Positions 674-34,260 of a DNA stretch of 59,142 nt are shown here, piece by piece. The position numbers and the translations under genes were made by a program. The stretch lies in IMG/VR virus record IMGVR_UViG_3300028048_000084; one strand, 5' to 3'. This DNA is from an uncultured virus (IMG/VR IMGVR_UViG_3300028048_000084). Lineage: Duplodnaviria > Heunggongvirae > Uroviricota > Caudoviricetes. The notes under the pieces were generated by a model. The model made no database searches. It had not been told where the DNA came from and saw only the letters and a list, made by a program, of their open reading frames with translations. Numbering within the stretch: the stretch's first letter is position 1; every line of letters begins with the position of its first letter.

Positions 674-1033
674 CAAGATATGCAGGAAGTAAAATTCCTG
701 CCTTTTTTATTTCCCTAATCACATAAAACATTTTACAAATAACCGCCCACATGTTATCTGAAATTGTAAAATGTTTTATGCGTTCTGCTTGTACGCTTAT
801 GGTGTACAATATAGGAAAAAGTTTTTTCTTGTATACATAAAAAACCTATTGACAAAGTAAGCAAGATAGTCTATACTAATAAGTGTCAAGGGCAAGGGAA
901 ACAAAAAATCTCAAGCAAAAAAATCCAGAGATTAATAAAAAAAGTCTTGACAAACGGTTCAATCGGTGGTACAATGTAATTGAAGATAAGGAAAGGGCAA
1001 AAGCCCAAAGGTTCAAAACAGGAGGAATTAATC

Positions 1034-1456
1034 ATGGAAAACGTCGCAATCAACAACAACACGGTCAATGTCAACGCAGTCGCAGACGAGCTTGCAATTG
1101 AGCTTGACAAGGTTCGTAGTGCAAAGAAGGAACTTGCCCGCCGTGAAAAGGAAATCACGGCAAAACTTTACAAGGCAGGTATTCTGCATGAGAACTACGA
1201 GCAGGAAGAAGTCACGACGGATAACGTCGTTATCCGCAAAATCCCTGCTTTGTCGGGCAAACGCTATGACGTAGACAAGGCGCGTGCTCTTGCAGATAGC
1301 CTGTCTATCAGTCGCAAGGAACTTGTAAATCGTGAGTGGAAATTCACGGTGAACGAGGATAAGTTAAAGGAACTTGTCGAAAGTGGCAAGGTTTCACAGG
1401 AGATTGTCGATAGCATGTCAATCAAAACAAACCGCATTAAGGTGGACGTGAAATAA
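1034..1456 (+). CDS. hypothetical phage early protein
   Basis: GGAGG RBS at 1021, ATG 1034, tandem promoters upstream, terminator ~1467-1500. Confidence 0.8.
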   Translation: MENVAINNNTVNVNAVADELAIELDKVRSAKKELARREKEITAKLYKAGILHENYEQEEVTTDNVVIRKIPALSGKRYDVDKARALADSLSISRKELVNREWKFTVNEDKLKELVESGKVSQEIVDSMSIKTNRIKVDVK

Positions 1457-1742
1457 ACCTAATGCACGGGTGGTAGAAAAAATCTACCGCCTTTTTTTTT
1501 GTTGTCTAATTTTCTTAATTATTTTTTAATCTAGGTTGATTGACTTTAATTTTTTTCTAATCAACGCATATGGAACATTGTAAAATGTTTTATGCACTAA
1601 CATGTTTTCAAACAATAAAACATTTTACATTCCACCGTGCGGACAAAACTTTTATAAAAAAGTTCTTGACAAAGCGATATATGTATGCTATACTATAATC
1701 AAGAAATGAGAAGTGGTTCAACCGTTACAGGAGGTACTTATC

Positions 1743-1982
1743 ATGGATAACGCAATCAAGGTTCTTAATGGTTTGTTCAAAGAGTATATGACAGACACAT
1801 ATTTTTTCCGTGTCTGCCTTGTGAACGGCAAGTATCAACTTGTTACGTTTGAAGCAGGTAAAGACGAAGAAACCTGCTTTATTAGCGAAGCAAACAAAGA
1901 TGAATTTGAAAAACGTCTGTGGACGTTTATTGCAGGTGTACAGGTAGCACGCGATGCTAATAAAGAAGGGTTTTTGGAATAA
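1743..1982 (+). CDS. hypothetical protein, paralog of 4025..4264
   Basis: GGAGG RBS; shares KYQLVTFE...EETCFISE..KDEFEKRLWTF.AGVQV with 4025..4264. Confidence 0.85.
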   Translation: MDNAIKVLNGLFKEYMTDTYFFRVCLVNGKYQLVTFEAGKDEETCFISEANKDEFEKRLWTFIAGVQVARDANKEGFLE

Positions 1983-2089
1983 CAAAAAGGGCAGGAATAA
2001 AGAGAAAAATTCCTGCCTGTTTTGTTTTGTGCATAACTGTAAAATGTTTTAAGCAAAATATCCTTCACGTAGCACGGCTCAAAAAACAG

Positions 2090-2185
2090 ACTTCCTAGAA
2101 TGACTTCTAAGCGCGTTATTTTTTGCCACGTATATAGTTATACCTGTTTTGTGATAGGGATAGCTTACAGGCGATTATAGAGCGA
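2090..2185. repeat. arm-core-arm palindromic site, copy 1
   Basis: core TATATAGTTATACCTG (2131-2146) flanked symmetrically by imperfect inverted arms ctagaatgacttctaagc / gcttacaggcgattatag. Confidence 0.75.
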
Positions 2186-2573
2186 ATAAAACCATACTCT
2201 ATGTATGTATCGTTCGTATATCTATATAAAAACACTTATCAAAAAATCTTTTTCAAATTTATAAAAAAGTGCTTGACAAAATATCGTTCTTTTGGTACAA
2301 TAAAGACAGTTAAGAGATAAGGTTCAAAACAGGAGGTAATCAAAATGATGTACGTAATTGGTTATGTGTTTATTGCATATGTTATTTGCACGGCATGGAA
2401 TGTGCTTGTAGATATGCTTGTAGATAACATCTGAAATAAAAAAGTGCTTGACATTCTTCTCAAAGCGAGTATAATATAAAGTGTAAGGAACAAGAGAAAA
2501 TAGATGATGCAATTATAATTCTCAATAACTATATATGAACAAAAATTAGAAGAAAACTAAGGAAGGAAAAATT

Positions 2574-2978
2574 ATGTTTGAACAAAGAAAAAATATTCGA
2601 GATTTTGTAAATCGACTTATAGAAGGTTTCCCAGAAAGCAAAAATCCTAAATGGAGATATATTTTATTCTTTAAGGATTCTATTAATGGTTTTGCATTTT
2701 CAGCACCTTATCTTGACAAAAGAGAATGTCATGGACGAGTTATTCTTAACATCCCTAGAATATCGAATCTTTGTAAAGGAGACGGGGAAAGATTCGCTAG
2801 TTTTTTATTAATGAACTTGTACCATGAAACACAACACACATATCAATTTGATTATATGAAAGAAAACAAATTAGATATAAGAAATTGTTTGCTAAAACAT
2901 CAAGAAAAATTAGAAAAACAAGCTATTGAAGCTATGAATAATCTAAAATATGATTTTGATTTTTCATATCTTCAGTAA
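2574..2978 (+). CDS. hypothetical protein with HExxH motif (putative metallopeptidase)
   Basis: LYHETQHTYQ ... E..A motif; AAGGA RBS. Confidence 0.65.
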   Translation: MFEQRKNIRDFVNRLIEGFPESKNPKWRYILFFKDSINGFAFSAPYLDKRECHGRVILNIPRISNLCKGDGERFASFLLMNLYHETQHTYQFDYMKENKLDIRNCLLKHQEKLEKQAIEAMNNLKYDFDFSYLQ

Positions 2979-3256
2979 CAAAGATTGTTGCAAATGTAAT
3001 AAGTACGGTTCTGTCAGAACAGATACATTAGGGGATGAGAAATCATCCCCTAATTTTATTGTCTAATTTTTATATAAGGTAATTTTAATCTAGGTTGATT
3101 GACTTTAATTTATTTTTAATTATTGAAATGTTGTAAAATGTTTTATAAATCAAAAAAAATCATTTTTATATAAAAAAGTGCTTGACAAAGTGGCACAGAC
3201 GTGCTATAATAAAGTCAAGAAATGAGAGATAAGGTTCATACAAGAAAGGATAACAG

Positions 3257-3559
3257 GTGATTCAAATGAAATTTGCAGACGTTAAGGTTGAGAACATGAC
3301 TTCTCACAACACAGAGCGTGAAATTCCGAATCAGTTCAAAATTCATGCAAATGGAGGCGTATACTTTCAGTCGTATAATACCGTTATTGCTCACGTTAAA
3401 GATGGACATGTTTCCATCGTGAAAGGTGGGTTGGATTACTCAACCACCACAAACAAATGGCTTTATCAGTTCCTTTCTGAAGAGTCGTATTATTCAAATT
3501 TGAATAAGCGCAAAATGGAAAAGTTAATTGCAAGTGGTGAAATCGAAGAAGTAGAGTAA
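3257..3559 (+). CDS. conserved phage hypothetical protein, paralog of 4599..4892
   Basis: near-identical to 4599..4892 (GVYFQSYNTVIA, DYSTTTNKWLYQFL); own promoter and terminator. Confidence 0.85.
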   Translation: MIQMKFADVKVENMTSHNTEREIPNQFKIHANGGVYFQSYNTVIAHVKDGHVSIVKGGLDYSTTTNKWLYQFLSEESYYSNLNKRKMEKLIASGEIEEVE

Positions 3560-4024
3560 AGTCAATTAAAATCAGGGGAGGTTGAAAAACCTCCCTTTTA
3601 ATTTGCAATAAAAATTCTCTAATATATTTTTAAGGTTGATTGACTTTTTGAACAACTGTGTTTTTCGCAAACACGTGTGATGTGTAAAATGTTTTATCTT
3701 TGATTGCATACGCATATAGTATACATTTTTAGAAAAAGTTTTTTCTTGTATACATATAAAAACTATTGACATTGATACTAAAAAGAGTATAATAGTAAGT
3801 GTCAAAGGGAAATGGTTCAAACAAATGGAGGTATTAGAAATGGAGTATGCAATCTGTTATATGGTATTTGCTATCGTTGCTTGTAGAACATGGTCACAAA
3901 AAAATTCACCAAGCGATAAAAAAATACTTGACATTCTTCTCAAAACGAGTATAATATAAAGTGTAAGGAACAAGAGATACACCTTACAGATGAGAAGTTT
4001 ACAGAACAAATGGAGGTAATCAAA

Positions 4025-4264
4025 ATGGACGATGCAATCAGAATTCTTAATTCTATGTTTGGTAAAAACATGATGGATGCGTATAACTTTCGTATCGCCA
4101 AAAGAGGTGACAAATATCAACTTGTCACTTTTGAAGGTGCAGAAGCAGAAGAAGAAACCTGCTTCATTAGCGAAACATCAAAAGACGAATTTGAGAAACG
4201 TCTTTGGACGTTTGTTGCAGGTGTACAGGTAAGCAAGAACGCAAGAGAAGATGGTCTGTTCTGA
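4025..4264 (+). CDS. hypothetical protein, paralog of 1743..1982
   Basis: GGAGG RBS, paralogy, terminator 4266-4305. Confidence 0.85.
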   Translation: MDDAIRILNSMFGKNMMDAYNFRIAKRGDKYQLVTFEGAEAEEETCFISETSKDEFEKRLWTFVAGVQVSKNAREDGLF

Positions 4265-4598
4265 CAAAAAAGGCAGGGAGGTAAAATATCTTCCCTGCCT
4301 TTTTTGTTATATACACCATAAAACATTTTACAAACAAACGACTGAACGAAAATTGTAAAATGTTTTATTGATTTGACTAGGTGATTTTGTATGCAATATA
4401 CATAAAAAAAGTCTTGACAATGATAACAGAATATGTTATTATAAAGACAGTTAAGAGATAAAACCATTAAACGGATGGAGGTTCAGTTCAGAAATAAATT
4501 CAAAAATAAATAAAAAATCTCTTGACAAAGTAACAAATATATGATATACTAAAGTCAAGAAATGAGAGATATGGTTCACAAGAAAGGAAGTAATTACA

Positions 4599-4892
4599 AT
4601 GAAATTCGCAGACGTTAAAGTTTACAACATGACCTCCCACAACACGGAACGTGAAATTCCGAATCAGTTCAAAGTATATGCCAATGGTGGCGTGTATTTC
4701 CAAAGCTATAACACAGTTATAGCTTTCGTGAAGGATGGTCATGTATTCATCGTTCGCGGTGGTCTTGACTATTCTACAACAACAAACAAATGGTTATATC
4801 AGTTTTTGGGAGAGGAAGCAGGATTGTTCAATTTGAACAAGCGCAACGTTTCCAAAATGATGGAAAGCGGTGAGATTGAAACTGTGGATTAA
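4599..4892 (+). CDS. conserved phage hypothetical protein, paralog of 3257..3559
   Basis: paralogy; same promoter leader (AAAGTCAAGAAATGAGAGAT) as 3257. Confidence 0.85.
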   Translation: MKFADVKVYNMTSHNTEREIPNQFKVYANGGVYFQSYNTVIAFVKDGHVFIVRGGLDYSTTTNKWLYQFLGEEAGLFNLNKRNVSKMMESGEIETVD

Positions 4893-5071
4893 AATTCACA
4901 TAGGAGGGCGGAAGCCCTCTTTTTATTTGCCTTAAATTTTTTCTAATTAAATTTTAAGGTTGATTGACTATTGTAAAATGTTTTATCAAATATCAAAATG
5001 TGAGCATAAAACATTTTACAGAAACACAAAAGTAAAAAAATACGTATGAATGATTCATACGTATTTGATAT

Positions 5072-5500
5072 TTACATAGCGTTTTCTGCCATAGCCCAAT
5101 ATAACTGATATTCAATATCATATTTACCTGCATTGTGAGTAATTTTCTTTCCTTTTAGATAATACGTTGCATATACATTGTCATCAAATTTATAATGTAC
5201 CATTTCCATTTTAACAGGGATACGATGGGAATAGTTATCCATAATGACCATAGTTCCAATATGCTTACATGGGATAATATATCCTTTGTAAATCTCATGC
5301 TTACGTCCTGCCTTGTCTTTATACACCCTTACTTTAACCACATCATTCTCTAGTGCTAAGTACTGATTATTTACTGTATCAGATACAAGCAGGTAATTTG
5401 TGTTACCATTGACGTATTGTGTTTGGTATGGTTTTATGTTTGCAAAGGCAATAGAAGAATAAAACAACAACATAAGCGTAAGCATAACAATCTTTTTCAT
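5072..5500 (-). CDS. secreted hypothetical protein
   Basis: N-terminal signal peptide MKKIVMLTLMLLFYSSIAFA; GGAGG RBS. Confidence 0.75.
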   Translation of the reverse strand: MKKIVMLTLMLLFYSSIAFANIKPYQTQYVNGNTNYLLVSDTVNNQYLALENDVVKVRVYKDKAGRKHEIYKGYIIPCKHIGTMVIMDNYSHRIPVKMEMVHYKFDDNVYATYYLKGKKITHNAGKYDIEYQLYWAMAENAM

Positions 5501-5517
5501 TTTATAAAACCTCCATA

Positions 5518-5943
5518 TTAAACCGTTTTGATAAATGTATATTCTGTTACATTTACTTCTCCTTTAGGAATATCGTTCAATTTCTCTAGCATAGCATTGT
5601 GCTTAATGCGTCTCTTGCTAGGATTTGTCAACGCTTCAATCTCTTTCATATTGCGCTTATCCCTGCTTGTAGGGAAAGACACAATAAGTTCCCCCATTAC
5701 ATTAAATGTGATAGTTTCTTGACTTTTATCAAAGTCATAGCTTGTCACATTCGGACAATCAATCATACCATACCTAATTTCACCCTGCATGAGATATTTT
5801 GCCATATACTGATAATAGGTATCAGTAGGGTTATCTTCACGATGAGACAAAATGTAATTATGTATATTTTTTGTTACCGTCCCTTTTACATGAAAAAGGA
5901 AGTTTGTATTGTCTACATTTTTGAAAATATCGTCATTGTACAT
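5518..5943 (-). CDS. hypothetical protein
   Basis: ORF with promoter at ~5975-6005 and AAGGA RBS. Confidence 0.65.
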   Translation of the reverse strand: MYNDDIFKNVDNTNFLFHVKGTVTKNIHNYILSHREDNPTDTYYQYMAKYLMQGEIRYGMIDCPNVTSYDFDKSQETITFNVMGELIVSFPTSRDKRNMKEIEALTNPSKRRIKHNAMLEKLNDIPKGEVNVTEYTFIKTV

Positions 5944-6110
5944 TTTAATCTTTCCTTTCTGCTCTTTATATATAAAGTATACCATAAAAATGGATATTTG
6001 TCAATATAAATTATATAATAAAAGGCACGATGTTTTTACGCACCGTGCTTTTTTTTGTTAATTCATTTCTTCCGCAGACCCCATCAATGCTCCAATAATA
6101 CTAGCACTTA

Positions 6111-6341
6111 TCAAGTTATATTATCTTCTTTCGCTATAATTTTATTGAATAAAATATGCATATCATTTTCAATAACTTTTCGATGTGTATTCAACGAATG
6201 AACTTCTTCCTCTAATTTCACAATTTTCAATTGTTGCTTTTCAATAATCTGACGCATAATATCCAAAATATCAAATAAATTATCTTTATCCCAATAATGA
6301 GCTTTTAGATATTGAATTGTTTTTTGCGCTTCTTGCGTCAT
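6111..6341 (-). CDS. coiled-coil hypothetical protein, paralog of 58492..58752
   Basis: MRQIIEKQQLKIVKLE vs MKDLISKQQLHIIKLE. Confidence 0.7.
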   Translation of the reverse strand: MTQEAQKTIQYLKAHYWDKDNLFDILDIMRQIIEKQQLKIVKLEEEVHSLNTHRKVIENDMHILFNKIIAKEDNIT

Positions 6342-6368
6342 GATTAGCCGCCTTTCTATTTTAAAAAG

Positions 6369-6980
6369 TTATTTAACAATATTTCCGTTTTCATCAAAAT
6401 CATAATTTTTTGCATCATCTTCTGCTTCTTTATATATCTCATCACGCATTTCATTCTCGCGTTGTTCTACATCTGCTGTTTCGTCATCTTCAACCTTCTG
6501 TAGAACGTCTCCTATAGCTTCTATAAGCGCATCTATGAACGCTGAACCACGTTCTCCGTATACATCCATAGAACTAGAATCCATCTTAACGTCCGTGAAA
6601 TTTACATCAACTGCGGCATCAAACGTAACATCCTTCAATGTAGCAAAAGCCTTATCAGGCGTAATATTTGTTTCATCTTCATCATTAATATATACCTGAT
6701 AGTCTTCTTCTGAAATATCCCCTGTCCCCATACAAGCATCAAACAACTTACGAGAAATAGGAGATTCATGAATTGTTAAATCAAAATCATAAACATCTTT
6801 CTGTGATTTATTTTCAAAAGCATCTTTGATTCCTGTAATACCAAGTTTTTCAAAAGACAGTCTTAAACTATCATATGTATCCATAATAACATCGGAAATA
6901 TTATCATCTAAACCTTCTTTAATAATAACATTCTGGAGAGCTTCATTCTTTGCATTTTCTGAAAGTTCATCAAATTTCAT
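6369..6980 (-). CDS. acidic protein of the FDELS...YxFDENG phage/plasmid family
   Basis: N-terminal KFDELSENAK, C-terminal YDFDENGN; strongly D/E-rich. Confidence 0.7.
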   Translation of the reverse strand: MKFDELSENAKNEALQNVIIKEGLDDNISDVIMDTYDSLRLSFEKLGITGIKDAFENKSQKDVYDFDLTIHESPISRKLFDACMGTGDISEEDYQVYINDEDETNITPDKAFATLKDVTFDAAVDVNFTDVKMDSSSMDVYGERGSAFIDALIEAIGDVLQKVEDDETADVEQRENEMRDEIYKEAEDDAKNYDFDENGNIVK

Positions 6981-8069: not shown

Positions 8070-8585
8070 TAAAAAAGCCTTGCGACTATCATATCGCAAG
8101 GCTTCTCTTTATTCTAAATAAGTATATATATAATATGAATTACTTAGCCCATTGGAACCATGTCCCTTCTATATAGATTGAAACCTAACTTTTCTCGAAC
8201 CATCGTGGTTAACATTTTTAAATAATAATAAAATATATATATATGTTCTCACTCGCTAAAGTTTATCTAGCTTTTTCTTCATCGTGTTCACTTCCTTTTC
8301 CCTTGGATTGATTATATTGTATCATAACTGAACTACTTTGTCAACAGTTTTTTAAATAATAATAAAATATATATGTTCTCACTCACTAGAGTTTATTCAG
8401 CTTTTTCTTCATTCTGTTCACTTCCTTTTCCCTTGGATTGATTATATTGTATCATAACTGAACTACTTTGTCAACAGTTTTTTAAATTTTTTTCTTTAAG
8501 GTATTAACATCATAAACAGTTCCGTTCAATTGTTTCATTTCCTTATCTCTGATTACATGATACCACACACAAAACAATTTGTCAA
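8070..8585 (-). ncRNA. putative non-coding/minigene transcription unit 1, with an ~135-bp tandem duplication
   Basis: three promoters, only tiny ORFs (MKKKLNKL*, MKKKLDKL*, MG*), terminator 8071-8105; modules shared with the 10515 and 17482 loci. Confidence 0.5.
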
Positions 8586-8709
8586 CACTTTTTTATAAAA
8601 AATGCAATTTTTTTGACCATAAAACATTTTACAATTTATAGAAACAGAAGTTTTGTAAAATGTTTTATGATAATATGGCAAATAAAAAAGAGGGTTTCCC
8701 CTCTTTTTG

Positions 8710-10120: not shown

Positions 10121-10514
10121 GATATTTTATTCCTCCCCATTCAAATAATCAATAACTAACTTTAAAGACTGCTTTTGTTTGGAAATAATCTTCTTCCTTA
10201 ATTACAAATCCTTCTCCAACCAAAATCCTCTCCTTTGTAGAACCTGTTGTTTTCTCTATGGTTATATATTACCATATAATATCTATTTTGTCAACATCTT
10301 TTTTATAAATCTCAATAAAAATTTTTGCACTAATAACAAGACCAACAATAAATCCAATCATAATTTCCATTTTGTATACACCTTCCTTTCATCACCTATA
10401 TCATACCATATAATTACATGTTTGTCAAAATATTTTTTATCAAATAAAACATTTTACAATTTTGCCCCATCCATTTTTATTTGTAAAATGTTTTATTCGA
10501 TAAAGGTATTATAA

Positions 10515-10907
10515 AAACCGTGCGGATAGGGAATATCCTGCACGGTTCTCTTTTTATAATTTTATAATAAATCTAAACTTAATATATGTAATTTCTATTT
10601 ACTACATCTTACTCATTCCTTTCAAAATTGTTATTCACGCTAACACACTAGAAGTTTATCGGCATTTTATATCAAACAAATTTATTATAATTTATAACTA
10701 GCCCAATGGTATCAAATCCCTTCATTGTTATATATGTTAACAATCCTATTGATTGTACCCCATAAAGGTTATGGCATTTTAATATCAATAAAAATTTAAT
10801 AAAGTATTTTTTGTCGCTACAGACCTTCAAATAATTTTTTCATTTCTATCTGTCCTTTTGTTTGTATTGTTTGATTTTAATATATCATATTATAAAAGTT
10901 TTGTCAA
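10515..10907 (-). ncRNA. putative non-coding/minigene transcription unit 2
   Basis: promoter at ~10880-10907 with more stacked upstream; only minigenes; terminator AACCGTGC..GCACGGTT shared with the 17482 locus. Confidence 0.5.
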
Positions 10908-11340: not shown

Positions 11341-11739
11341 TTAGTCTGTAATAGGGTTTTCTTTGTGAAACTCTTTGTAATTCAGATTGAATACACCTGC
11401 TACGCTATCTGTAAGCGTTTTACGGATATTTACGAAAAGCGTTTCAATTCGTAAATGCTTTGCAAGACGCTTGTACACATAGCCATTTTTCGTCTGCCAA
11501 CGCATAACAAGTCGAACTGCATCCTTGCCATTATCACGCATTTTATTCGTGCGTTTATCTACCGCCGAATAAATGAGAACATCAACCTTCGGATTTTTTG
11601 TTGCCATACGATATACATATTCGTATGTATCAACTTCAGGAACAAAATTACCAATATAGGCAAGATGATAAACATCTGCCATTTTACGCATGGTCTGTAC
11701 AAACTGTGCTTTTGTGTATCGCGTGTATTTCGTAGCCAT
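11341..11739 (-). CDS. hypothetical protein
   Basis: AGGAGG RBS before MATKYTR; own promoter and terminator. Confidence 0.75.
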   Translation of the reverse strand: MATKYTRYTKAQFVQTMRKMADVYHLAYIGNFVPEVDTYEYVYRMATKNPKVDVLIYSAVDKRTNKMRDNGKDAVRLVMRWQTKNGYVYKRLAKHLRIETLFVNIRKTLTDSVAGVFNLNYKEFHKENPITD

Positions 11740-11900
11740 GATGTATTTCCTCCTGTATTTCAAACCGTGTTTCTCTCTATGGTTATATATTACCATAGAA
11801 CGGATATTTTGTCAAGAGGTTTTTTATAAAAAAAGATATTTTTATAAAACATTTTACAAATCCATACAAAAAAAGCAGATACACAAGCATCTGCCACAAA

Positions 11901-12861: not shown

Positions 12862-12876
12862 GATAAAACCGTTTCC

Positions 12877-14271: not shown

Positions 14272-14574
14272 TTTGAATTACCTCCATTGTTGAACCGTTC
14301 GATTAGGTTTCTCTATTTCCCTAACCTTTGATTACATTATAACTCTTGTTCGTTCTTTTGTCAAGAGGTTTTTTATATTTTTGATTTTTTCTTTTTCCCT
14401 CTGACAGTTATTATATTACACCTATAATAACTTATTGTCAAGCATTTTTGTATAAACTTTTTTTGCGAATAGACGATATAAAACATTTTACAATCAGTTT
14501 GTGTATAGTGCATTATGTAAAATGTTTTATGTTTTTGGCAAAATAAAAAAGCAGGCTTTCGCCCGCCTTTTATA

Positions 14575-14772: not shown

Positions 14773-14934
14773 TTGAACTCTTTGTTTTCCTATCTATGGT
14801 TATAGTATAGCAAATATAGATATATTTGTCAAGAACTTTTTTATAAAAAAATAAAAAATTTTTATACATAAAACATTTTACATAATCGCCTATATAAAAA
14901 TACCCTGCTAGTAGAGTTAGCAAGGTATCAATAA

Positions 14935-19058: not shown

Positions 19059-19068
19059 ATAAAACATT

Positions 19069-24131: not shown

Positions 24132-24164
24132 AAAAGGATAACTAAATTTAGTTATCCTTTTGTT

Positions 24165-24443
24165 TTATTTATGCATATTCATAAAATCTGCTACTGCTTT
24201 ATTAACCAAGTTTTCTAAAATGGTTTCATTGAATTTATAATTTGAATAAATGCTCGTAACAAATACTGTATTGATATTAACAAATTCACGTATGTTATAA
24301 AAATGTTTTGATACATCTTTCAACGGTTTTATAACATAGAAAACTTTTTTATCTTTCATATTATAAAACACATCCATATAATCTTCACGCCAAATTTCTT
24401 TAGAGGCTTCTAATACCTCCTTTATTCCATTTATCATTTTCAA
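24165..24443 (-). CDS. hypothetical protein
   Basis: AAGGGTGA RBS. Confidence 0.55.
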   Translation of the reverse strand: MKMINGIKEVLEASKEIWREDYMDVFYNMKDKKVFYVIKPLKDVSKHFYNIREFVNINTVFVTSIYSNYKFNETILENLVNKAVADFMNMHK

Positions 24444-24683
24444 ATCACCCTTGTTTGAATAGTTTTTTATATAAATGAAATAAAAGCGTATAATTCAAAA
24501 ATCCTGTTTTTCCTGCGCATATTAAAAACTACTTCTTTTTTCATAGTGTAAAATGTTTTATGTAAAAAATTAGATAAGACATTTTACATTGTGAAAAAGG
24601 CATAAAAAAAATATGCCTATCTTGCATACACTTTCCATTCATGGATAATGTGTTTTCACATTATCCGTTTACGTTTTATTTAA

Positions 24684-24932
24684 TTATAATTCGCGTAAAT
24701 ACTTTTTAATTTCATTAAATGCTGGTCGTTCATCTACTCCACTAATGTTAATTACCAATATTTGATTCGGTAAAATACATAAGTCTAAAACACTTAATAT
24801 ACTTTTTGCATTGGCAGAATTGTTATCATTATAAACCTTAATACTTGCATGATATTTCTGTGCTATCTTTGCTAAACCTCCGCACTCTCTCAAACTCAAA
24901 CGCTTGTGAGATTGCTCTATTAAATTAACCAT
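24684..24932 (-). CDS. HPr-family phosphocarrier-like protein lacking the catalytic His15
   Basis: 82 aa; ANAKSILSVLDL (Ser46 signature) and I.G.DE..A; LSLR in place of LHAR. Confidence 0.8.
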   Translation of the reverse strand: MVNLIEQSHKRLSLRECGGLAKIAQKYHASIKVYNDNNSANAKSILSVLDLCILPNQILVINISGVDERPAFNEIKKYLREL

Positions 24933-25079
24933 GATTACATCACCTCATTGTTATAATAAAACACATAGAATAAAAATATTCTACGTTGATAGTATAACAA
25001 AAAAGAGACTTTTTTGCAAGTCTCTTTTATAAATCATAACAGTTTTATTATATGTACTATTCTTTTTTATTATATCTAA

Positions 25080-25484
25080 TTATTCAATAGCGATATACTT
25101 ATCTTCCTGTTTTTCGTCCTTATTAACAGTAATGGTTAAAATACCATCTTTCAAATTAGCTTTAATATCCTGCTTGTTCATGTTAGGAAGTCTAAAGCTA
25201 CGTGACACCTTGCTATAACTTCTTTCGTGACAAAGATACTTCTTATCATCCTTTGTATCTTCCTTGTGTTCAACTGCAATTGTCAGAACGTCATCCTTAG
25301 TTGATACTTTAATATCATTCTTGTCAAAACCTGCAACCTCCGCAGTAACAATATATGACTTTTCTGTATCTTCTACGTCACATTTCATATCTTGATGTAC
25401 TTGTGGAAACTTAAATCCATCAAAAAATCCATCATTAAAAATACTATCCATTTCTTTGTTTTCAAAAGGAATTAAACCAAACAT
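25080..25484 (-). CDS. Hsp20/alpha-crystallin small heat-shock protein
   Basis: DVEDTEKSYIVTAEVAGFDK.DI, ERSYSKVSRSFRLP, A.LKDGILTI. Confidence 0.92.
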   Translation of the reverse strand: MFGLIPFENKEMDSIFNDGFFDGFKFPQVHQDMKCDVEDTEKSYIVTAEVAGFDKNDIKVSTKDDVLTIAVEHKEDTKDDKKYLCHERSYSKVSRSFRLPNMNKQDIKANLKDGILTITVNKDEKQEDKYIAIE

Positions 25485-25655
25485 TATTATTACCTCTTTA
25501 TATTAAATACTCTTTTTCCTTTTTCCATTGATTAAATAGTCAAAAAGTCAAACTTTATAACAGGTACTAAAAATTTTTTTGTAAAATGTTTTATGGTAAA
25601 AAGTCAATCAACTTAACACAAAAAAAGAGGGAACATATTTTCCCTCTCCTATTCG

Positions 25656-27584: not shown

Positions 27585-27980
27585 TTACTTCTTCAGATTA
27601 CTCATATAAACTTCCATTTTGTTTCCACGTTCATCCATGCAAAGTACAATACCATTATGGAATTTTTTATCATCGTCATAATACGCTTTTTGTACAATAT
27701 CAATAACAGTAAGATTTCCGTACTTGCGTCCAATCCACTTATTTTCATAAGACTTCTTTTTACATTCCTTGCACATTTTTACAGAACCGTTCTTTAGATA
27801 CTGCAAGGGAACAATAATTTGGTTTCCACAATCACACTCACACAGATACATAGCAAGTGTTTTACCATGATTACCAATAGGCTTATTACAAACATACTTA
27901 ACAACCGTGAGTTTACCGAATTTATGACCAACAAAACTATCTACATCGAATGTACGCATAATTAATCTCCCCTTATTCAA
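27585..27980 (-). CDS. homing-endonuclease-associated repeat protein without a nuclease domain
   Basis: G.KFGKLTVV..., YLCECDCGN and a second GRKYGNLTVI repeat. Confidence 0.65.
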   Translation of the reverse strand: MNKGRLIMRTFDVDSFVGHKFGKLTVVKYVCNKPIGNHGKTLAMYLCECDCGNQIIVPLQYLKNGSVKMCKECKKKSYENKWIGRKYGNLTVIDIVQKAYYDDDKKFHNGIVLCMDERGNKMEVYMSNLKK

Positions 27981-28237
27981 ATATCCTCCAATACAACCCC
28001 ATCATCTGTCATTGATACTTTTTTTGCTATCCAATCTGACGTAATGAAAAAGTTTGTATCATATGAAGAAAGCACTTCAATCATAGCATCATCGCCCAAA
28101 TTGACAATCTGTTTAACAGATACAATCTGATTAGACAACTGTTTCTGCATTAATCCCATACAATTGTCGTTAGGTAGTTCATCTTTTGGTTTAATGATAA
28201 CCGAATCTCCGATTTTTAAGTTCATGATTATCACCAC
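27977..28237 (-). CDS. hypothetical protein
   Basis: LKIGDSV.IK start (SH3-like). Confidence 0.6.
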   Translation of the reverse strand: MVIIMNLKIGDSVIIKPKDELPNDNCMGLMQKQLSNQIVSVKQIVNLGDDAMIEVLSSYDTNFFITSDWIAKKVSMTDDGVVLEDI

Positions 28238-28492
28238 TTATTATCCATCTTTTTAATAGCCTTTACGATTTGTCTCTTAGTCATTTATTATTCCTCCTTT
28301 AATAAAAATATTGCTCATCAACTTCATATTTGCTTAAATCTTTTGCAGTTTTTTGTATAATGTAGTTATTATTTGTTTCTTCAACAAGTTGTTTCATGAT
28401 TAAATAATCTTTACTTGAAAATATCAAACTACCAATTTTAATATAATACCACATAAATAATCTCCCCTTTACAGTCCATAATTATTCCTTCA

Positions 28493-28810
28493 TCAATCCT
28501 GCACTAGTTTATCCATGACGTGATTATAATCGTGCTTATACAAGCATTCCATTTCATAATGGAAGTTACAATCTTCAAGCAAGTCCTCAATTTTATTCTG
28601 ATACTTTCCTGCTTTATGAAGGTTAGTCAATTCCACAATATCATCATGAGTAAATCCCCAATGAATGATAGGAGAAGTATCACAACCACCATTAGCCTTG
28701 TTCAATGCCCTTGCCCAATTCGACAAGGAATAAATACGACCGTTCATATCCTTGTAAAAAGGAATGTTCTCACCATTGAATTTTTCAATATACTTTGTTG
28801 TGCGTTTCAT
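28493..28810 (-). CDS. hypothetical protein
   Basis: IEDLLEDCNFH motif; RBS and promoter. Confidence 0.7.
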   Translation of the reverse strand: MKRTTKYIEKFNGENIPFYKDMNGRIYSLSNWARALNKANGGCDTSPIIHWGFTHDDIVELTNLHKAGKYQNKIEDLLEDCNFHYEMECLYKHDYNHVMDKLVQD

Positions 28811-29104
28811 TGTTCGTTTCCCCTTTCATTATTTAGTATACCACACATATATGTGTTTGTCAATATTTTTTTTATGCTTCCTCAATGTTATTTACATAGC
28901 AGTAACCATCTTTTTTCAAATCGCCCCAATCGACATGATTTTCCAAACAGTTCTCAAAATCCTGCTTAATGTAATTAATTACCTCCTAAACAATTCTCTG
29001 TTCTCTTTCTATGGTTATATATTACCATATCTTTTATTTTTTGTCAAGCATTTTTTTATATTTTATCCAATAAAATATGGCAGGTAATATACCCGCCACA
29101 TTAT

Positions 29105-29338
29105 TTAACGACCGTAAATCTTATTCTGATTCTCAACCGTATCTAAAATACTATCAAGAACCATTAATACACGTTTTTCATCTTTGGCAAAACCAACGTC
29201 CCACATTTCATCGTTTTTCGAGTCTAAGCGAATGATAATATATTCACCCGCTTTTTTCGTCACAACATAATCGTTATTGTGGTCTGCCTTATTTAGCTTT
29301 TCAAGCGTAACAAAAATCTTATCAAACATCAGTATCAT
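29105..29338 (-). CDS. hypothetical protein
   Basis: promoter, RBS, terminator. Confidence 0.65.
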   Translation of the reverse strand: MILMFDKIFVTLEKLNKADHNNDYVVTKKAGEYIIIRLDSKNDEMWDVGFAKDEKRVLMVLDSILDTVENQNKIYGR

Positions 29339-29409
29339 CCTTTCATTGCCTTGTGAACCTCTCTATGGTTATATATTACCACACGTAACAATGAAAGTCA
29401 AGCATTTTT

Positions 29410-30624
29410 TTATTTACTTAAAAAAGTTTCTATCTCATTCATAGATACATATTTTCCTGCTCTTGATTTAATCAATGAAATAGGAGCATGTTTTTTTAGA
29501 GTGAACATATAACCTTGATACTCTTTAGGTACTACTTGTTGTACGGTTTTACCAAACTTTGCCATATCGTCTATATGTTTTACTACATCGTAATAACGAT
29601 ATATCAAACTAGATTTTTTGTTCATATAGTGAAAAACTTTATCTGCTACCTCATTTAACATACTATGATATATCGTAGGTACTTTAGCCAACAAATCATC
29701 ATAGCAATCATCTGCAATAGCTTGAATGATTGTTTTCTTTGACGTTTCTTGCGCAATAATATGATTTAACTCTAAATAGTCATCACATTTTAGTTTATAC
29801 CTATGATTATCAATCGTAATAACCCATCCCTCTTTATCTGAACCACGATAAGATTTTTTTGATTGAATAACATCAGACAAAGAACGATTGTCAAATTGTG
29901 TCATAGGAATGTGATATTTATCTGCATATTCTTTTTTGATATACTTATATGGATATTCAACACCATTTGTTATATTGCGAACACCAATAAGATATATTCC
30001 TTCTTGCTCTTTCGTATAAACAACAATATGTCTATCATTCAATGAAATATATTCAAAAATAAACGTCTTGTCTGCATTATCCATAATCATCTGTTTATGA
30101 TTATCAGATAACATAGTTTCTGCTTCTTTCAGGCGAAAATTTGTATTCGCGTCAAGTGAACCTGTACCACCAAGCACAAAATGATTATCATAATATGCTA
30201 CAGACAACAACGAACCATCTAGTTTATTTGTTATTTCAACGTCTTTTGCGTTTTTCAAATATCCCTTGACAATATCAATATTTGTTTCCTCTATCTCGTT
30301 GATATTGAAAAATTTACGAAAAGGACACAATACAATAGCATCATTTTCAATATCTATTGTCAAACCTCTCATTTCACGATAAATAGAATTTGAATTACTA
30401 TAAATGTCATTGTTTCCACCTTTGATAAGCGAATACTTGAAAAGATTGTACTTGCCATATACAATGATAGATACACATTTCAAAAAATTATTATATTCAT
30501 CTGTATTTAGATATTCACACATTTCTTCAATGCTATAGGTATCAAGCATATCTATGTGTTTTTTGTTCATATATTGGTATTTGATGTTCATAACATAGTT
30601 ATATGCTATATCCCAATCGTACAT
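29410..30624 (-). CDS. T4 Rnl1-type RNA ligase
   Basis: E.RG, PFRKFFN, KLDGS (motif I), FEYIS, EGWV, YKLKC..Y. Confidence 0.88.
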   Translation of the reverse strand: MYDWDIAYNYVMNIKYQYMNKKHIDMLDTYSIEEMCEYLNTDEYNNFLKCVSIIVYGKYNLFKYSLIKGGNNDIYSNSNSIYREMRGLTIDIENDAIVLCPFRKFFNINEIEETNIDIVKGYLKNAKDVEITNKLDGSLLSVAYYDNHFVLGGTGSLDANTNFRLKEAETMLSDNHKQMIMDNADKTFIFEYISLNDRHIVVYTKEQEGIYLIGVRNITNGVEYPYKYIKKEYADKYHIPMTQFDNRSLSDVIQSKKSYRGSDKEGWVITIDNHRYKLKCDDYLELNHIIAQETSKKTIIQAIADDCYDDLLAKVPTIYHSMLNEVADKVFHYMNKKSSLIYRYYDVVKHIDDMAKFGKTVQQVVPKEYQGYMFTLKKHAPISLIKSRAGKYVSMNEIETFLSK

Positions 30625-30790
30625 GGTAATTCACCTCCATTACATAATATCAAATAACAGTATTTTTGTCAACGCATTTTTGAAAAAAATCGGATTGTAA
30701 AATGTTTTATTGAAATATAACTTACTTGATAAAACATTTTACATAATAGGAAAAATCAAAAGAGGAAGGTTTTACCCTTCCTCTCGTTTC

Positions 30791-31303
30791 TTACCAACGC
30801 TCATAGTGAACTTTGAGATTATATTTAGAAATTAGATTGTCTGCTTTTGCTTTCCATACTTCATGCAGGTTATTTTCGTGAATGTACGTTGACAATTCAC
30901 CTTCAATCTCTTCACGACTTGCGCCTTTGCAAAGTGCAATCAACTTTTCTGCTTCATCAACAGAAATCATCAAGTGATTTGCAAGTGCTTCTTTTTCATT
31001 GTGTTCGATGAAATAAGCACCGTTCGCAATCTCATGCATCGGTTTGCCATCAACATCCCTAAGATGAAAATCGAACAAATCTGCAAGTTCAGGGAATTTG
31101 CGTTCCGTCTCACGACCGCAAGCACCACACAAAACAGGATTCGCGTAACGTTTATCACGTCCACCCTTGCGCGTCGCTTTCCATGTATTGTGCGTGACAG
31201 AAAAGTATGGCTTCTGCTTACCAATCTGTTCAAGCTTCCCATAGAAGATGAACAGATAACCATTGTTGACTTTTTTTGCGACTTCATACTGTGCTTCAAA
31301 CAT
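30791..31303 (-). CDS. hypothetical protein
   Basis: PYFSVT, CGAC, FPELA..FHL...G.PMH..ANG.Y. Confidence 0.75.
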   Translation of the reverse strand: MFEAQYEVAKKVNNGYLFIFYGKLEQIGKQKPYFSVTHNTWKATRKGGRDKRYANPVLCGACGRETERKFPELADLFDFHLRDVDGKPMHEIANGAYFIEHNEKEALANHLMISVDEAEKLIALCKGASREEIEGELSTYIHENNLHEVWKAKADNLISKYNLKVHYERW

Positions 31304-31542
31304 TTCAATTACCTCCTAAAAACTGTGAACCTTATCTCTTTATGCTTATATATTAGCATATTTTGTTTTGTTTGTCAATAGCTTTTTTATTTTCTTGACT
31401 TCTTTTTCCTTTCGACACTTATAGATTACCATATCAGTATATCATTGTCAAGAACTTTTTTATGTATACAAAATACAAATTTTTTGAAAAAACTTTATAA
31501 AACATTTTACAATTTTATAATTACAGTATTTTATAGGTAGTA

Positions 31543-31959
31543 ATGATTGGAGTGAGAAATATAATGAATAATCCCTATGATGAAATACAAATGAAACCAT
31601 TTACGCTATTAAATGACAGTCAAATCAAAAGTGTTAATAAAAAAGGCATACAAGGCAAATCGCTATTTATCAAATTTAGCGAGAAAAATATGTACGATTA
31701 TATAGATGAATTTTATTATAACTTATTCATAAATCATCCTAGACTTTTATTTGATATAACGAATTATGATAATGGTAATTCTTATGTGATTGACAAAAAA
31801 ATGAATGAATTATTTAAGCAACAATTTACAAACAGTTATTCTTATCTTGTAAATAACAATATTCTAAAATTCATTCCCAAGCAGGTATTAGAACAAACCA
31901 TGAAACATGTTTTTTCAAAGCCTAGAAAGGAAAACAAACTATTCAAACAATCTATCTGA
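31543..31959 (+). CDS. hypothetical protein
   Basis: 138-aa ORF. Confidence 0.5.
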   Translation: MIGVRNIMNNPYDEIQMKPFTLLNDSQIKSVNKKGIQGKSLFIKFSEKNMYDYIDEFYYNLFINHPRLLFDITNYDNGNSYVIDKKMNELFKQQFTNSYSYLVNNNILKFIPKQVLEQTMKHVFSKPRKENKLFKQSI

Positions 31960-32055
31960 AACGCCCTAGAATTGCCTGTATTACGTTTGTAACCACAAAT
32001 AGGTATAGTTATATAGGAAAGTCAAATTAAGTCACCATAAGCGAATATAGCACTA
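31960..32055. repeat. arm-core-arm palindromic site, copy 6
   Basis: core AGGTATAGTTATATAGG at 32001; arms ctagaattgcctgta / cataagcgaatatag. Confidence 0.7.
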
Positions 32056-32137
32056 TGTAAAATGTTTTATTAATACGCATACAAGAAAGAGGAAGGATTT
32101 TTCCTTCCTCGCTTTTTTATTTCTTGATTCGGCTTTT

Positions 32138-32665
32138 TTATTTCTTGATTCGTTTGAAATTTTTCAAACTGATATTGAATGAGTAATGATTTTCCGTACA
32201 AAGTTTAACGTACTTGCGCAAGTCATCAGAATTATAAATGTTACGGATAACAATTTCCTTTTTCGTTACATTCCAATCTGCCCTATCCTTGTCATTGTAA
32301 ACGATATAAAGGATATTACCTTTTTTCACAAAATCCTCAATAGTCTGTGCGCGTTTAACGCTATTCCACAAACCATTGTAAAAGTCGATAACAGGGATAG
32401 CGTCAGATTCGTGTGAAGTATAGAGAAAAGTTTTTTCATTATCCCCAAAATACTTATCACAAATATCTGCAAGATACTTACGCCACTCATACGGTTTTTT
32501 GACAGGATTTTCCTTGTCAAAATTATACCACTCACGCTCATAAATTTCACGTCTCGTAGTATAATCGAACATGGTACAATTACTAGAGCCATTACACCAC
32601 ATAAGCATAATAGAACCATCATCCAATTTCAACCCAACACGGTCATAAACAATTGTGTACGACAT
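32138..32665 (-). CDS. hypothetical protein
   Basis: MSY.IVYDR, GSSNCT, ER.W; GGAGG RBS. Confidence 0.75.
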   Translation of the reverse strand: MSYTIVYDRVGLKLDDGSIMLMWCNGSSNCTMFDYTTRREIYEREWYNFDKENPVKKPYEWRKYLADICDKYFGDNEKTFLYTSHESDAIPVIDFYNGLWNSVKRAQTIEDFVKKGNILYIVYNDKDRADWNVTKKEIVIRNIYNSDDLRKYVKLCTENHYSFNISLKNFKRIKK

Positions 32666-33011
32666 TTTAATCTACCTCCATTTATTGCTCATTTCCTTAT
32701 CTCTGTAAACAGTATATCACAGGTTCGTAACTTTGTCAATAAATTTTTTATTAAAACTCAATTTATATCTTCCTTTCTGCTATCTCTGTTTGTTTTCCTT
32801 TCGATGGTTATATAATACCATATTTATGAATGAATGTCAACAGTTTTTTTATAAAAAAATTTTTATCGTACTTGTGTAATAAAACATTTTACAAATCGGC
32901 ATTGTGCGTTTTATTGTAAAATGTTTTATACAGTCGTATCGTTATATGTGAATATATATTCACATATAAAAAAATAAAATAGGCGATAGGTTTCACCCTA
33001 CCGCCTTTCGT

Positions 33012-33386
33012 TCATGATTGTCTTATTTTTTCGTCTACACTTTGCATGAAGTAAATGGCATTAGGTTTTATTTCATCCTCATGACCATCAAGAACATCTA
33101 ATAGCAATTGTTGATAGTGTATAATCAGTAAGTCTGATTTACCGCTATAAATTGTCGCTTTATCAAATTCCCTTGTTACGTTATTTCCAAAGTGTTTTTT
33201 CAAAACGCTAAAGAAAAAACTCTCCATGCAAAGCTCTTTGCACGTCCTATCATTAAACGCTTTTGTACGCTCCCTCCTGTACATGTCTAAGTAACTTGCA
33301 TAGCCACAAACAATCAGTTTTCGTCCATTCGTTTTAATGAAGTCTAAGACCTTTGAACGAATATCGTGCTCATTATCCATAAGCAC
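33012..33386 (-). CDS. hypothetical protein, paralog of 33654..34013
   Basis: KV..F...NG.KLI...Y.SYLD..RR ... FDK.T ... DLLI. Confidence 0.8.
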   Translation of the reverse strand: MLMDNEHDIRSKVLDFIKTNGRKLIVCGYASYLDMYRRERTKAFNDRTCKELCMESFFFSVLKKHFGNNVTREFDKATIYSGKSDLLIIHYQQLLLDVLDGHEDEIKPNAIYFMQSVDEKIRQS

Positions 33387-33653
33387 ACCTCCTATGAAAT
33401 TTTAAGAGAACTTGCGGAACATCTATTATCTCTTTGCTCCTTACACATTATATATTAGCACATCTGCTACTCTTTGTCAACAACTTTTTTATACACGTAT
33501 TGTAGATAAAACATTTTACAAAAATTGTTTGTATGGAGATTGTAAAATGTTTTATTTCAATGCTTGTTTACGATAAAACATTTTACAAAATAGACACATA
33601 ATAAAAAGCTATGATAAATTATTTTATCATAGCTTTTATTAATATATATCTTT

Positions 33654-34013
33654 TTATTTCGTTTGAACGCTTTTATCTATTTTCTCTAGCAACTCTTGTG
33701 CAAGTTTATTTATTTCCTGCTCATGGTTTTTATAGTACTTATCATATAGATTGTTATATTGCATGATTAACAAATCATACTTTTTATTTGACAAGGTTTC
33801 TTTATCAAAAGTCTTTTGTACATCTTCGCCAAAAAGTGTTTTTAGCGTTTGCCAAAAATAGTTTTCCATTGTCATAGCAATAATGCTATCTTGACTAAAA
33901 TTGCCATTATTATTGATTCCTCTGCGTTTTACATCTAGGTAGCTAGTATAAGCACCTATAATTAGCTTTTTTCCGTTCTTATCAAGAAACGTCATTACTT
34001 TTTCTCTTACCAT
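33654..34013 (-). CDS. hypothetical protein, paralog of 33012..33386
   Basis: paralogy; GAGGTGA RBS. Confidence 0.8.
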   Translation of the reverse strand: MVREKVMTFLDKNGKKLIIGAYTSYLDVKRRGINNNGNFSQDSIIAMTMENYFWQTLKTLFGEDVQKTFDKETLSNKKYDLLIMQYNNLYDKYYKNHEQEINKLAQELLEKIDKSVQTK

Positions 34014-34260
34014 ACAAATCCACCTCTACTATTTATTGTATCATACTACATACACAAAGTCAATGAAAAGTTTTTTTGTAAAATGTTTTATTGGCTTGTA
34101 CTTGTGAAATAAAACATTGTACAATTTTTGTTTGGCATCTGTAAAATGTTTTATCTGATATGAATGAAAACTATTATCATTCGCATTAGACTTTAATATA
34201 ATTTTAATATACGTTCTTTTGAAAGCAAAAAAATTGTTCCTAAAAAATTTTCCAAAATCA

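Follow-up and report, generated by a model that had tools for sequence, protein, structure and literature searches.

Introduction

In bacteria, most known protein roadblocks to transcription act at individual regulatory sites, and the phage examples are mainly the stoperators of lysogeny. Cluster A mycobacteriophages such as L5 carry 20–30 asymmetric stoperators genome-wide, oriented with transcription, at which bound repressor blocks elongation (PMC6550527), and the stoperators of D29 are also -35-like (PMC12266134). In T4-type phages, PeSL elements place strong host-type promoters and hairpin terminators between small ORFans and are shuffled through homology (PMC2839356). The phi29 protein p4 recognises an A-tract-rich inverted target with the half-site AAAATGTT on host sigma-A promoters (PMC3100819, PMC1904284), while Cluster O mycobacteriophages hold more than 30 invariant copies of a 17-bp repeat, many of them intergenic (PMC4351075). 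Yeast Reb1 and Rap1 roadblocks and pausing at CTCF are further cases in which a sequence-specific protein stops polymerase, in an orientation-dependent manner for Rap1 (PMC10310618).

The array of 15-mers described here resembles stoperators in that a single short, asymmetric word recurs tens of times per phage genome, mostly outside promoters. However, stoperators are genome-wide, share one orientation and serve lysogeny, whereas the 15-mers occupy an early block in both orientations, with inverted pairs and set distances to terminator and promoter. As in PeSLs, consensus host promoters with AT-rich upstream regions stand ahead of ORFans, and shuffling occurs by recombination between elements. 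The PeSL hairpin lies within or beside the promoter and the section on PeSLs describes no invariant operator (PMC2839356), whereas terminator and promoter are mostly 70–170 bp apart here, with one to three invariant sites in each gap. The p4 system comprises four sites with half-sites at a fixed 15-bp spacing, two of the sites overlapping -35 boxes (PMC3100819); the 15-mers do not follow this plan, with 51–68 sites, single copies, spacers of variable length and hardly any overlap with promoters. Unlike the 15-mers, the Cluster O repeat is a perfect palindrome with a variable centre that is distributed genome-wide, about a third of it in genes (PMC4351075). Reb1, Rap1 and CTCF are eukaryotic, whereas the 15-mers are coupled to bacterial intrinsic terminators, and the likeness is one of function only.

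The window and its relatives

The window is the whole analysed stretch of 59,142 nucleotides from an uncultured virus (IMG/VR IMGVR_UViG_3300028048_000084). Judging by its sequence, it is part of a giant rumen megaphage similar to phage G; the capsid protein of its 281-kb relative G001 has 80% identity to phage G gp27. Megablast of 50,697 phage records gave no close relative, and searches with the amidase and the 288-aa neighbour returned G001 plus three smaller, unrelated-looking contigs and nothing else. A scan of G001, an incomplete record that lacks the replication module, gave no repressor or integrase match; a 179-kb metagenome contig extends about 89 kb beyond its end. A relaxed version of the pair pattern occurred at 36 phage loci; 17 of these belong to G001, and each of the 19 others has a single pair. 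K-mer enrichment in phage G, G002, G003, G004, G005 and G008, mostly fragments, found no equivalent upstream word, and a late-promoter search gave nothing usable. Supposed homologues of the motif in phage G and G002 were rejected as promoter -35 regions. GTDB genomes contained no motif pair.

Three poly-G blocks mark the right array edge (Table 1). A long terminal repeat was considered at this edge and rejected, as contig depth showed no step (X1, 54–69 inside versus 58–62 across or outside; X2, about 12 versus 13–14), depth of bulk-metagenome contigs being weak evidence and X1 and X2 possibly being the source. Contigs covering array genes were present in one RNA run, a type of data that cannot reveal transcript ends or levels.

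Table 1. Positions of the motif array, its arms, example junctions and neighbouring elements in the window
Feature	Position	Strand	Details
Motif array	723–34154	.	Copies of TGTAAAATGTTTTAT separating promoter-gene-terminator cassettes; 39 clusters
Left arm of early block	41–4919	+	Genes on +; its start precedes the window, at about 166.5 kb in G001
Right arm	5072–34063	-	Genes nearly all -; small ORFans, Hsp20, HPr, RNA ligase, DUF7227, DUF6927
Convergence point of arms	4904–5020	.	Terminator 4904–4919, M2 4959, inverted pair 4972+/5006-; no called promoter within 80 bp
Typical junction	4272–4442	+	Hairpin 4272–4299, 18 bp, 4318(-), 21-bp spacer, 4354(+), 45 bp, promoter 4414–4442
Typical junction	8557–8703	-	Terminator 8690–8703, 21 bp, 8654(+), 20-bp spacer, 8619(-), 33 bp, promoter 8557–8585
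Junction	10400–10545	-	Terminator 10518–10545, 21 bp, pair 10482/10444, 15 bp, promoter 10400–10428
Single-copy junction	11787–11894	-	Terminator 11875–11894, 16 bp, copy 11844, 28 bp, promoter 11787–11815
Junction	14413–14566	-	Terminator 14551–14566, 20 bp, pair 14516/14478, 36 bp, promoter 14413–14441
Single-copy junction, both spacing rules kept	14804–14925	-	Terminator 14903–14925, 20 bp, copy 14868, 35 bp, promoter 14804–14832
Junction, other pair type	30644–30783	-	Terminator 30762–30783, 18 bp, 30729(-), 18-bp spacer, 30696(+), 23 bp, promoter 30644–30672
Copy 18 bp behind terminator, no called promoter near	32056–32110	-	
Right-arm entry	33452–34154	-	Triple clusters 33506/33541/33573 and 34077/34109/34140, preceding two paralogous all-alpha ORFans (33012–33380, 33654–34013)
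M2, second motif GTTGATTGAC	1535–34327	.	7 copies: 1535+, 3094+, 3635+, 4959+, 21998+, 25603-, 34318-
Hsp20-HPr block	24161–25622	.	Orientation reversed in other strains; right boundary 28 bp past the 25580 copy, adjoining M2 and the terminator
Three poly-G blocks, right array edge	34255–34400	+	Also in G001

An invariant motif confined to the early block

The original prediction of about 50 exact and about seven one-mismatch copies proved close to the mark, with 51 exact and 8 one-mismatch copies of the 15-mer counted in the array. The reported absence of exact copies from the last 25 kb was also upheld: outside the array there is a single one-mismatch copy, at 52987. Chance expectation at up to one mismatch is 0.13 per window, and none of 100 shuffles reached the observed level. 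Similarly, 67 of the 68 exact copies in G001 (281 kb) lie within a single early-gene block of 41 kb, with no equal density elsewhere; at up to one mismatch, 40 copies are forward and 40 reverse. The motif is invariant at 15/15 positions, whereas orthologous spacers and linkers drift in sequence while keeping a similar length, and its flanks, compared over 170 distinct contexts, are nearly uninformative except for a slight preference for T at -1/-2.

Copies had been placed between one unit's terminator and the next unit's promoter. They are indeed intergenic, only 4/206 falling inside RBS-called ORFs across the window and three related contigs, which are related strains whose combined counts are not independent despite de-duplication at 78–80%. 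The link to promoters is less regular, as 12/39 window clusters (22/80 in a wider set) have no called promoter within 80 bp. Conversely, about half of the called array promoters have a copy within that distance (27/58 and 32/57).

The 39 window clusters comprise 21 single copies, 16 pairs and 2 triples. Neighbouring copies up to 80 bp apart are inverted in 83/85 cases, which bears out the inverted pairs first described. The modal spacer of 21 bp is confirmed too; the range given then, 18–27 bp, was slightly narrow, since window spacers run from 9 to 27 bp. These spacers had also been read as about two helical turns, a reading that does not hold: there is no sharp two-turn distance, with mostly 19–25 bp in one pair type and 17–20 bp in the other.

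Such frequent inversion would suit pairs that form RNA or single-strand DNA hairpins for RNase III-type processing or in the manner of integron attC sites, although we consider this extremely improbable. An attC site is a single-strand hairpin with covarying arms. In contrast, the 15-mer sequence is fixed and shows no covariation, and 35/80 clusters in the wider set are single copies. Moreover, complementarity inside the pairs is below that of shuffled sequence (0.32 versus 0.47 ± 0.04, n = 41; 0.21 versus 0.29 ± 0.05, n = 18), and bases outside the pairs are complementary at chance level, so that stems are not extended.

Spacing behind terminators

The first copy behind an intrinsic-terminator hairpin lies at 14–24 bp in 30/42 non-redundant junctions, a range picked post hoc from the data, with terminators and promoters called by purpose-written scripts. 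The null expectation for this range is 7.9 ± 2.5 junctions, or 11.4 ± 2.8 in a stricter version, and none of 20,000 draws matched the observed value. A copy nearer than 14 bp to the hairpin was found in 1/42 junctions against 8–12 expected. In a wider junction set, 39/59 fall at 14–24 bp with a peak at 16–21 bp, and 18/59 first copies lie beyond 24 bp, many with the second motif, M2, in between; most M2 copies occupy this gap between terminator and first 15-mer.

Terminators that follow genes have a copy within 120 bp in 60/80 cases in arrays and 0/30 outside, leaving 20/80 array terminators without one. The polarity of the motif behind terminators is 28 versus 11, and the distance from terminator to the next -35 box is at least 68 bp in 55/59 junctions. 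Copies also follow terminators that lack a called promoter nearby; besides the one at 32056–32110, the copies at 2038, 9335 and 17451 are examples.

It has been demonstrated that a bound EcoRI mutant halts polymerase 14 nt ahead of its own site (PMC5499547), and the B. subtilis enzyme halts 12–13 nt before it (PMC3913778). With a roadblock stop 12–14 nt before the site and copies at 16–21 bp, the RNA end would lie 2–9 nt past the stem. The 14–24 bp spacing is thus about where, by analogy, a bound protein would stop RNA polymerase in the U-tract.

Phasing before promoters

Distances from the -35 box to the nearest upstream copy correspond to whole helical turns, at about 22, 32, 42, 52 or 62 bp (n = 63; Rayleigh R of 0.60 for a 10.5-bp period; 0/5,000 jitter runs). 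This phasing is present in each of the four contigs and in both motif orientations, with a polarity of 50 versus 13. The array promoters are near-consensus, with a TTGACA -35 and variation around it, and three A-tracts in phase with one another precede this box, their centres about 6, 16 and 28 bp away. The motif centre is roughly half a turn out of A-tract register.

Helical phasing could also be produced by shut-off operators, a reading that we regard as rather unlikely as a whole. A phage protein made after infection would bind upstream of the near-consensus promoters, contact polymerase and trap or block it in the manner of phi29 p4; the terminator spacing would then merely reflect staying clear of terminating polymerase. 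In its favour, array promoters alone are marked (in G001, 32/57 inside the array and 1/73 outside), strong promoters can be repressed by stabilising factors (PMC11806353), and the p4 target has the same AAAATGTT half-site (PMC1904284). However, only 3/206 copies in the four contigs overlap a called promoter core, while p4 sites 1 and 3 overlap -35 boxes (PMC3100819), and the 22/80 clusters without a promoter within 80 bp do not fit. The narrow 16–21 bp peak is also left unexplained, and 342 scanned G001 ORFs gave no p4-like Pfam match.

Phasing in both orientations and the three phased A-tracts are likewise compatible with activator or counter-silencer sites, at which a virion-carried or host protein would bend DNA or contact the alpha subunit, giving AT-rich phage promoters the advantage over those of the host. 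We find this improbable because the promoters are already near-consensus, the motif centre is out of register with the A-tracts, and the copies behind promoterless terminators are not accounted for. Furthermore, the exact motif is present in 1/151 Selenomonadaceae-group genomes, taken as candidate hosts, compared with 3 for a reversed control, the host assignment being uncertain.

A further reading starts from the reverse complement of the motif, ATAAAACAT-TTTACA, which differs at 2/15 positions from the extended -35 element of phage G, AAAAAACAG-TTTACA. The 15-mers would be orphan -35/UP elements read by RNA polymerase or a sigma-4-like domain, serving as parking or decoy sites derived from an ancestral phage G-like promoter. 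The phage G element is among the most frequent words of that genome (39 copies of its 12-base core, with a similar word in G002) and lies 7–23 bp behind the terminator in 10/11 cases with a called terminator; most copies of the window motif behind terminators share its reading direction. Nevertheless, there is little to recommend this origin: a perfect -10 hexamer 16–18 bp downstream, as expected of a sigma-A -35 element, occurs in 0/170 contexts (one mismatch in 13/170) versus 36/39 in phage G and 24/26 in G002. The promoters of this clade use TTGACA with variation, whereas the motif is invariant, and, given the A/T-richness of both words, their likeness may be due to chance.

A proposed operator and insulator array

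With moderate confidence, the distances and the invariance of the word point to the 15-mers being operators of one highly specific, probably phage-encoded protein whose role between cassettes would be that of a roadblock or insulator. The candidate protein would mark the borders between first-expressed cassettes read by host polymerase. Once bound, it would stop incoming polymerase when the RNA end has reached the U-tract or its vicinity, which would let termination run to completion, and would keep polymerase from reading through or sliding into the following unit. Next to the promoter, the protein would always occupy the same helical face, either in contact with polymerase and the phased A-tracts or free of them. 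As the TTTTAT end faces polymerase on both sides in most cases, inverted pairs would arise from that alone.

A more specific version, which we offer tentatively as possible, is a phage-encoded insulator in which one polar protein occupies a site after every early terminator and, in helical phase, ahead of every early promoter. It would turn 40–50 very strong, freely shuffled cassettes into independent units, with terminated polymerase recycled within its own unit.

No match to a DNA-binding family was found among the scanned array genes. The boundary paralogue at the right-arm entry was predicted to have an all-alpha fold with no significant match (best Z 4.9) and has one database homologue. 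A two-domain protein adjacent to NusG gave only weak HTH matches when folded (best E 1.9), and a basic protein at 11341–11739 had Atlas scores under 0.8. RNA-guided recognition was considered and rejected, as no copy at up to one mismatch lies near the two IS200/IS605-type loci of G001. By inspection, the array terminators look strong enough unaided, which speaks against a roadblock. So does the timing, since a protein needed within the first minutes would have to enter by injection or be synthesised very early. It also counts against this reading that few DNA-binding proteins are good roadblocks (PMC10310618).

A literature search of titles and abstract openings, with most subscription journals outside its coverage, returned no such array or terminator-coupled phage operator array. 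If the proposal is true, sites systematically coupled to terminators and phased to promoters would constitute a bacterial-type insulator and would account for the ability of megaphages to operate dozens of interchangeable early cassettes of maximal strength next to one another. It would also provide a 15-bp insulator part for synthetic biology. Both distance rules could be tested computationally on the unexplained words of other phages.

Cassette shuffling and the recombination question

The original prediction had proposed a dedicated cis-acting system, either of protein-binding sites or of crossover sites for cassette shuffling. The former half is supported by the confinement to the early block, the invariance amid drifting flanks and the two spacing rules that match polymerase geometry, while the latter is not supported. 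Sites of serine and tyrosine recombinases have rearrangement joints at the site centre and a linked recombinase gene. Several features of the 15-mers would suit crossover sites for site-specific recombination or inverted repeats at the ends of mobile cassettes, namely the invariant asymmetric TG centre, the TG...CA ends and a cassette order that varies among strains. In addition, the five block ends that touch the motif fall exactly at its edge, one contig changes parent at a copy, and 24/98 block ends lie 5–36 bp from a copy, a raw count that partly reflects the same events.

However, the breakpoints expected at the motif were not enriched there: 5/98 strain-block ends fall within it against a motif share of 3.5–4.9% of sequence, even though the test was run on unmasked sequence, a bias favouring motif ends. 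Joints at the site centre were not seen, and 37/42 shared genes keep their orientation despite about 60–80 sites in both directions. The single inversion ends 20–30 bp off the motif. PF00589 was found in 0/5 records and PF00239 in 2/5, G001 not among them; the PF00239 match in G006 is an HTH-resolvase adjoining a TnpB-like gene. The 281 kb of the incomplete G001 record yielded no recombinase of the tyrosine or serine type. Taken together, a role in site-specific recombination is very doubtful.

Comparison of the strain sequences indicates that the cassettes are shuffled by homologous recombination, the motif being only sometimes the micro-homology used. The crossovers inspected fall within homologous leader, RBS or terminator sequence, and two deletions have their joints in leader/RBS homology. 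Block ends in promoters or leaders number 21/98 against 13–17% of sequence, a weak excess.

The motif array and its source phage

The motif array is real and clade-specific. The invariant 15-mer TGTAAAATGTTTTAT occurs as 51 exact and 8 one-mismatch copies at window positions 723-34154, and the last 25 kb of the window hold no exact copy and a single one-mismatch copy; shuffled sequence yields 0.13 matches. Of the 206 copies in the window plus three related contigs, 4 lie in called ORFs and 3 overlap called promoter cores; 83 of 85 close neighbour copies are inverted. The original prediction of about 50 exact copies, placed in gaps outside genes and promoters, often in inverted pairs and without an exact copy in the last 25 kb, was thus borne out. 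Sequence conservation ends abruptly at both motif edges. Hairpins formed by the inverted pairs have next to no probability, as complementarity between the bases enclosed by a pair falls below chance level.

A scan for exact matches picked up G001, a 281-kb viral record, along with several metagenome contigs from related strains. The major capsid protein of G001 shares 80% identity with gp27 of Bacillus phage G, so the window virus is a phage G-like megaphage. The G001 record is incomplete, because no DNA polymerase was found among the 342 scanned of its 365 called ORFs and replication genes are present in relatives that extend it. Bovine gut is the usual label of the sequencing runs that contain the region (20 rows from 13 studies, of which two may be the source itself), and the two genome matches of the amidase are one Selenomonadaceae bin and one Oscillospiraceae bin.

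Counted beyond the window and in candidate hosts, the motif kept to one early-gene block: 67 of the 68 exact copies in G001 fall within 166.5-207.1 kb, the other lying at 161 kb, and the exact 15-mer occurs in 1 of 151 Selenomonadaceae-group genomes (3 matches for the reversed control). The motif pair was not found in the GTDB genome set. The block is built of two convergent arms of small genes and is the region of G001 densest in host-type promoters. A copy lies ≤80 bp upstream of 32 of the 57 promoters called in the block and of 1 of the 73 outside it. Copies so placed could be shut-off operators, which we regard as unlikely, or activation sites, which seem less likely again.

Spacing from terminators and promoters

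The 15-mers are putative operators of a protein that would insulate early cassettes (promoter-gene-terminator units) from each other, a reading to which we give roughly an even chance; we infer its every functional step from site spacing. Gene-following terminators have a copy within 120 bp in 60 of 80 cases in the arrays and in 0 of 30 outside. With hairpins from a custom caller, the first copy lies 14-24 bp beyond the stem's 3' end in 39 of 59 non-redundant cases, with a peak at 16-21 bp; it is nearer in 2 and farther in 18, in many of which a second word, M2 (GTTGATTGAC), intervenes. Among the 42 junctions that have a promoter downstream, 30 show a distance in this interval, which was picked post hoc from the data themselves, against 7.9 ± 2.5 under random placement and 11.4 ± 2.8 under a stricter null that keeps the U-tract and UP region free (0 of 20,000 draws reach 30/42). 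Distances below 14 bp were seen at 1 of the 42 junctions, with 8-12 expected.

Release at intrinsic terminators occurs at about U7-U8. A bound EcoRI mutant halts polymerase 12-14 nt ahead of its site, according to the available parts of PMC5499547 and PMC3913778, so that an equivalent stop at copies 16-21 bp away would leave the end of the RNA 2-9 nt beyond the stem, inside the U-tract or where it finishes. In vitro, a roadblock downstream of a terminator hinders diffusion of the terminated polymerase (PMC7957599, in the portion available).

On the promoter side, the centre of the proximal copy lies upstream of the -35 box by about 22, 32, 42, 52 or 62 bp. For the 63 cases left of 92 after redundancy was removed, Rayleigh R at a period of 10.5 bp is 0.60, a value reached in 0 of 5,000 jitter runs. 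The phasing is seen in each of four contigs, is nearly the same for both motif orientations, and is absent from the distal copy in three of the four; linker length is retained between linkers of unrelated sequence. In array promoters, A-tracts have their centres some 6, 16 and 28 bp upstream; A-tract units growing in 10-bp steps could be the source of part of the phasing. The motif centre lies about half a turn off the A-tract register and is still phased beyond the A-tracts.

Copies mostly read ATAAAAC first behind terminators (28 vs 11) and mostly end in TTTTAT before promoters (50 vs 13), so the same motif end faces polymerase on both sides, which explains the commoner pair type and the loose spacer. 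An inverted pair would then be two sites anchored independently, subject to a minimum distance. Such insulation is likened in action to the stoperators of Cluster A mycobacteriophages, as far as the accessible text of PMC6550527 describes them, and to a Reb1-type roadblock (excerpt of PMC10310618), here set into PeSL-like cassettes; yet the array belongs neither to the stoperators nor, going by the available part of PMC2839356, to the PeSL of T4-type phages.

Phage G words and candidate readers

Motif-like words rank near the top by frequency among the 12-mers of phage G and of G002, a 504-kb relative. They were rejected as motif homologues because they are extended -35 elements: 36 of 39 in phage G and 24 of 26 in G002 come with a perfect -10. 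A perfect -10 accompanies 0 of 170 contexts of the 15-mer, which makes it highly improbable that the copies are orphan -35 sites. The 15-mer may have descended from, or may mimic, a phage G-type extended -35 element. The available part of the phage G paper (PMC12484599) mentions no such array.

The relatives have genes for two HU-like and two sigma-like proteins, for a WYL protein and for a NusG-adjacent protein that probably contains an HTH; none of these was attributable to the motif as its reader. The C-terminal HTH of the NusG-adjacent protein presumably resembles sigma region 4.2, and its Foldseek matches are weak. Its recognition helix has Glu in the G001 form vs Ala in G002 and phage G, and -35 boxes differ between phages (TTGACA vs TTTACA); it is a possible -35 box reader (n=3).

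Strain rearrangements

Strains differ in cassette content and order. The suggestion that the motif is a site-specific crossover site now carries very little probability: 5 of 98 strain-block ends touch it, about what the fraction of sequence it occupies would predict, and orientation is unchanged in 37 of 42 shared genes (of the others, 4 lie in a single inversion and 1 elsewhere). Furthermore, two deletions have their crossovers where leaders or RBSs are homologous, the Hsp20-HPr inversion terminates 22-28 bp outside a motif copy, and the search for a co-occurring recombinase gave no integrase or resolvase family match in the incomplete G001 record. The five block ends stop at the motif edge, where one contig also switches parent; this is consistent with the motif acting as micro-homology. 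Of the 98 ends, 24 (raw count) lie 5-36 bp from a copy and are read as free drift of flanks. Nearly identical yet inverted in other strains, the Hsp20-HPr block is read as a recent mobile module derived from a host.

Coordinates of features in the window and related phages
Feature	Location	Remarks
Exact and one-mismatch motif copies	G001 161057 and 161123	Direct orientation; 5 kb left of block, beside promoter
Three ~70-bp direct repeats	G001 165860-166190 (L148 5860-6190)	In 1.3-kb gene-free stretch at left edge of array, near GC-skew switch; candidate origin or genome end
Three poly-G blocks	window 34255-34400	Right edge of array; retained in G001; no sequencing-depth step across them
M2 with AT-rich leader	window 1535, 3094, 3635, 4959, 21998, 25603, 34318	Often 35-43 bp behind terminator, displacing first 15-mer; 8 copies in G001, 2 just right of block
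Hsp20-HPr block	window 24161-25622	99.7% identical yet inverted in G001 and contigs of three runs
NusG-adjacent two-domain protein	G001 256179-256538 (L152:16182-16538); G002 312673-313062; phage G 428425-428835	Conserved
Anaerobic ribonucleotide reductase gene	window 43650-52905	Split by several HNH/GIY-YIG insertions and an intein; insertions differ from those of G001
KRL(I/V) peptide	window 39733-56365; many G001 ORFs	Starts or ends several acidic ORFans; possible capsid-loading tag
Tandem iteron-like array, 46-bp unit	G002 37930-38100	Candidate origin of the 504-kb relative
Non-coding repeat, ~150 bp or more	G005 (another compared phage record) 111500-114500	Seven copies
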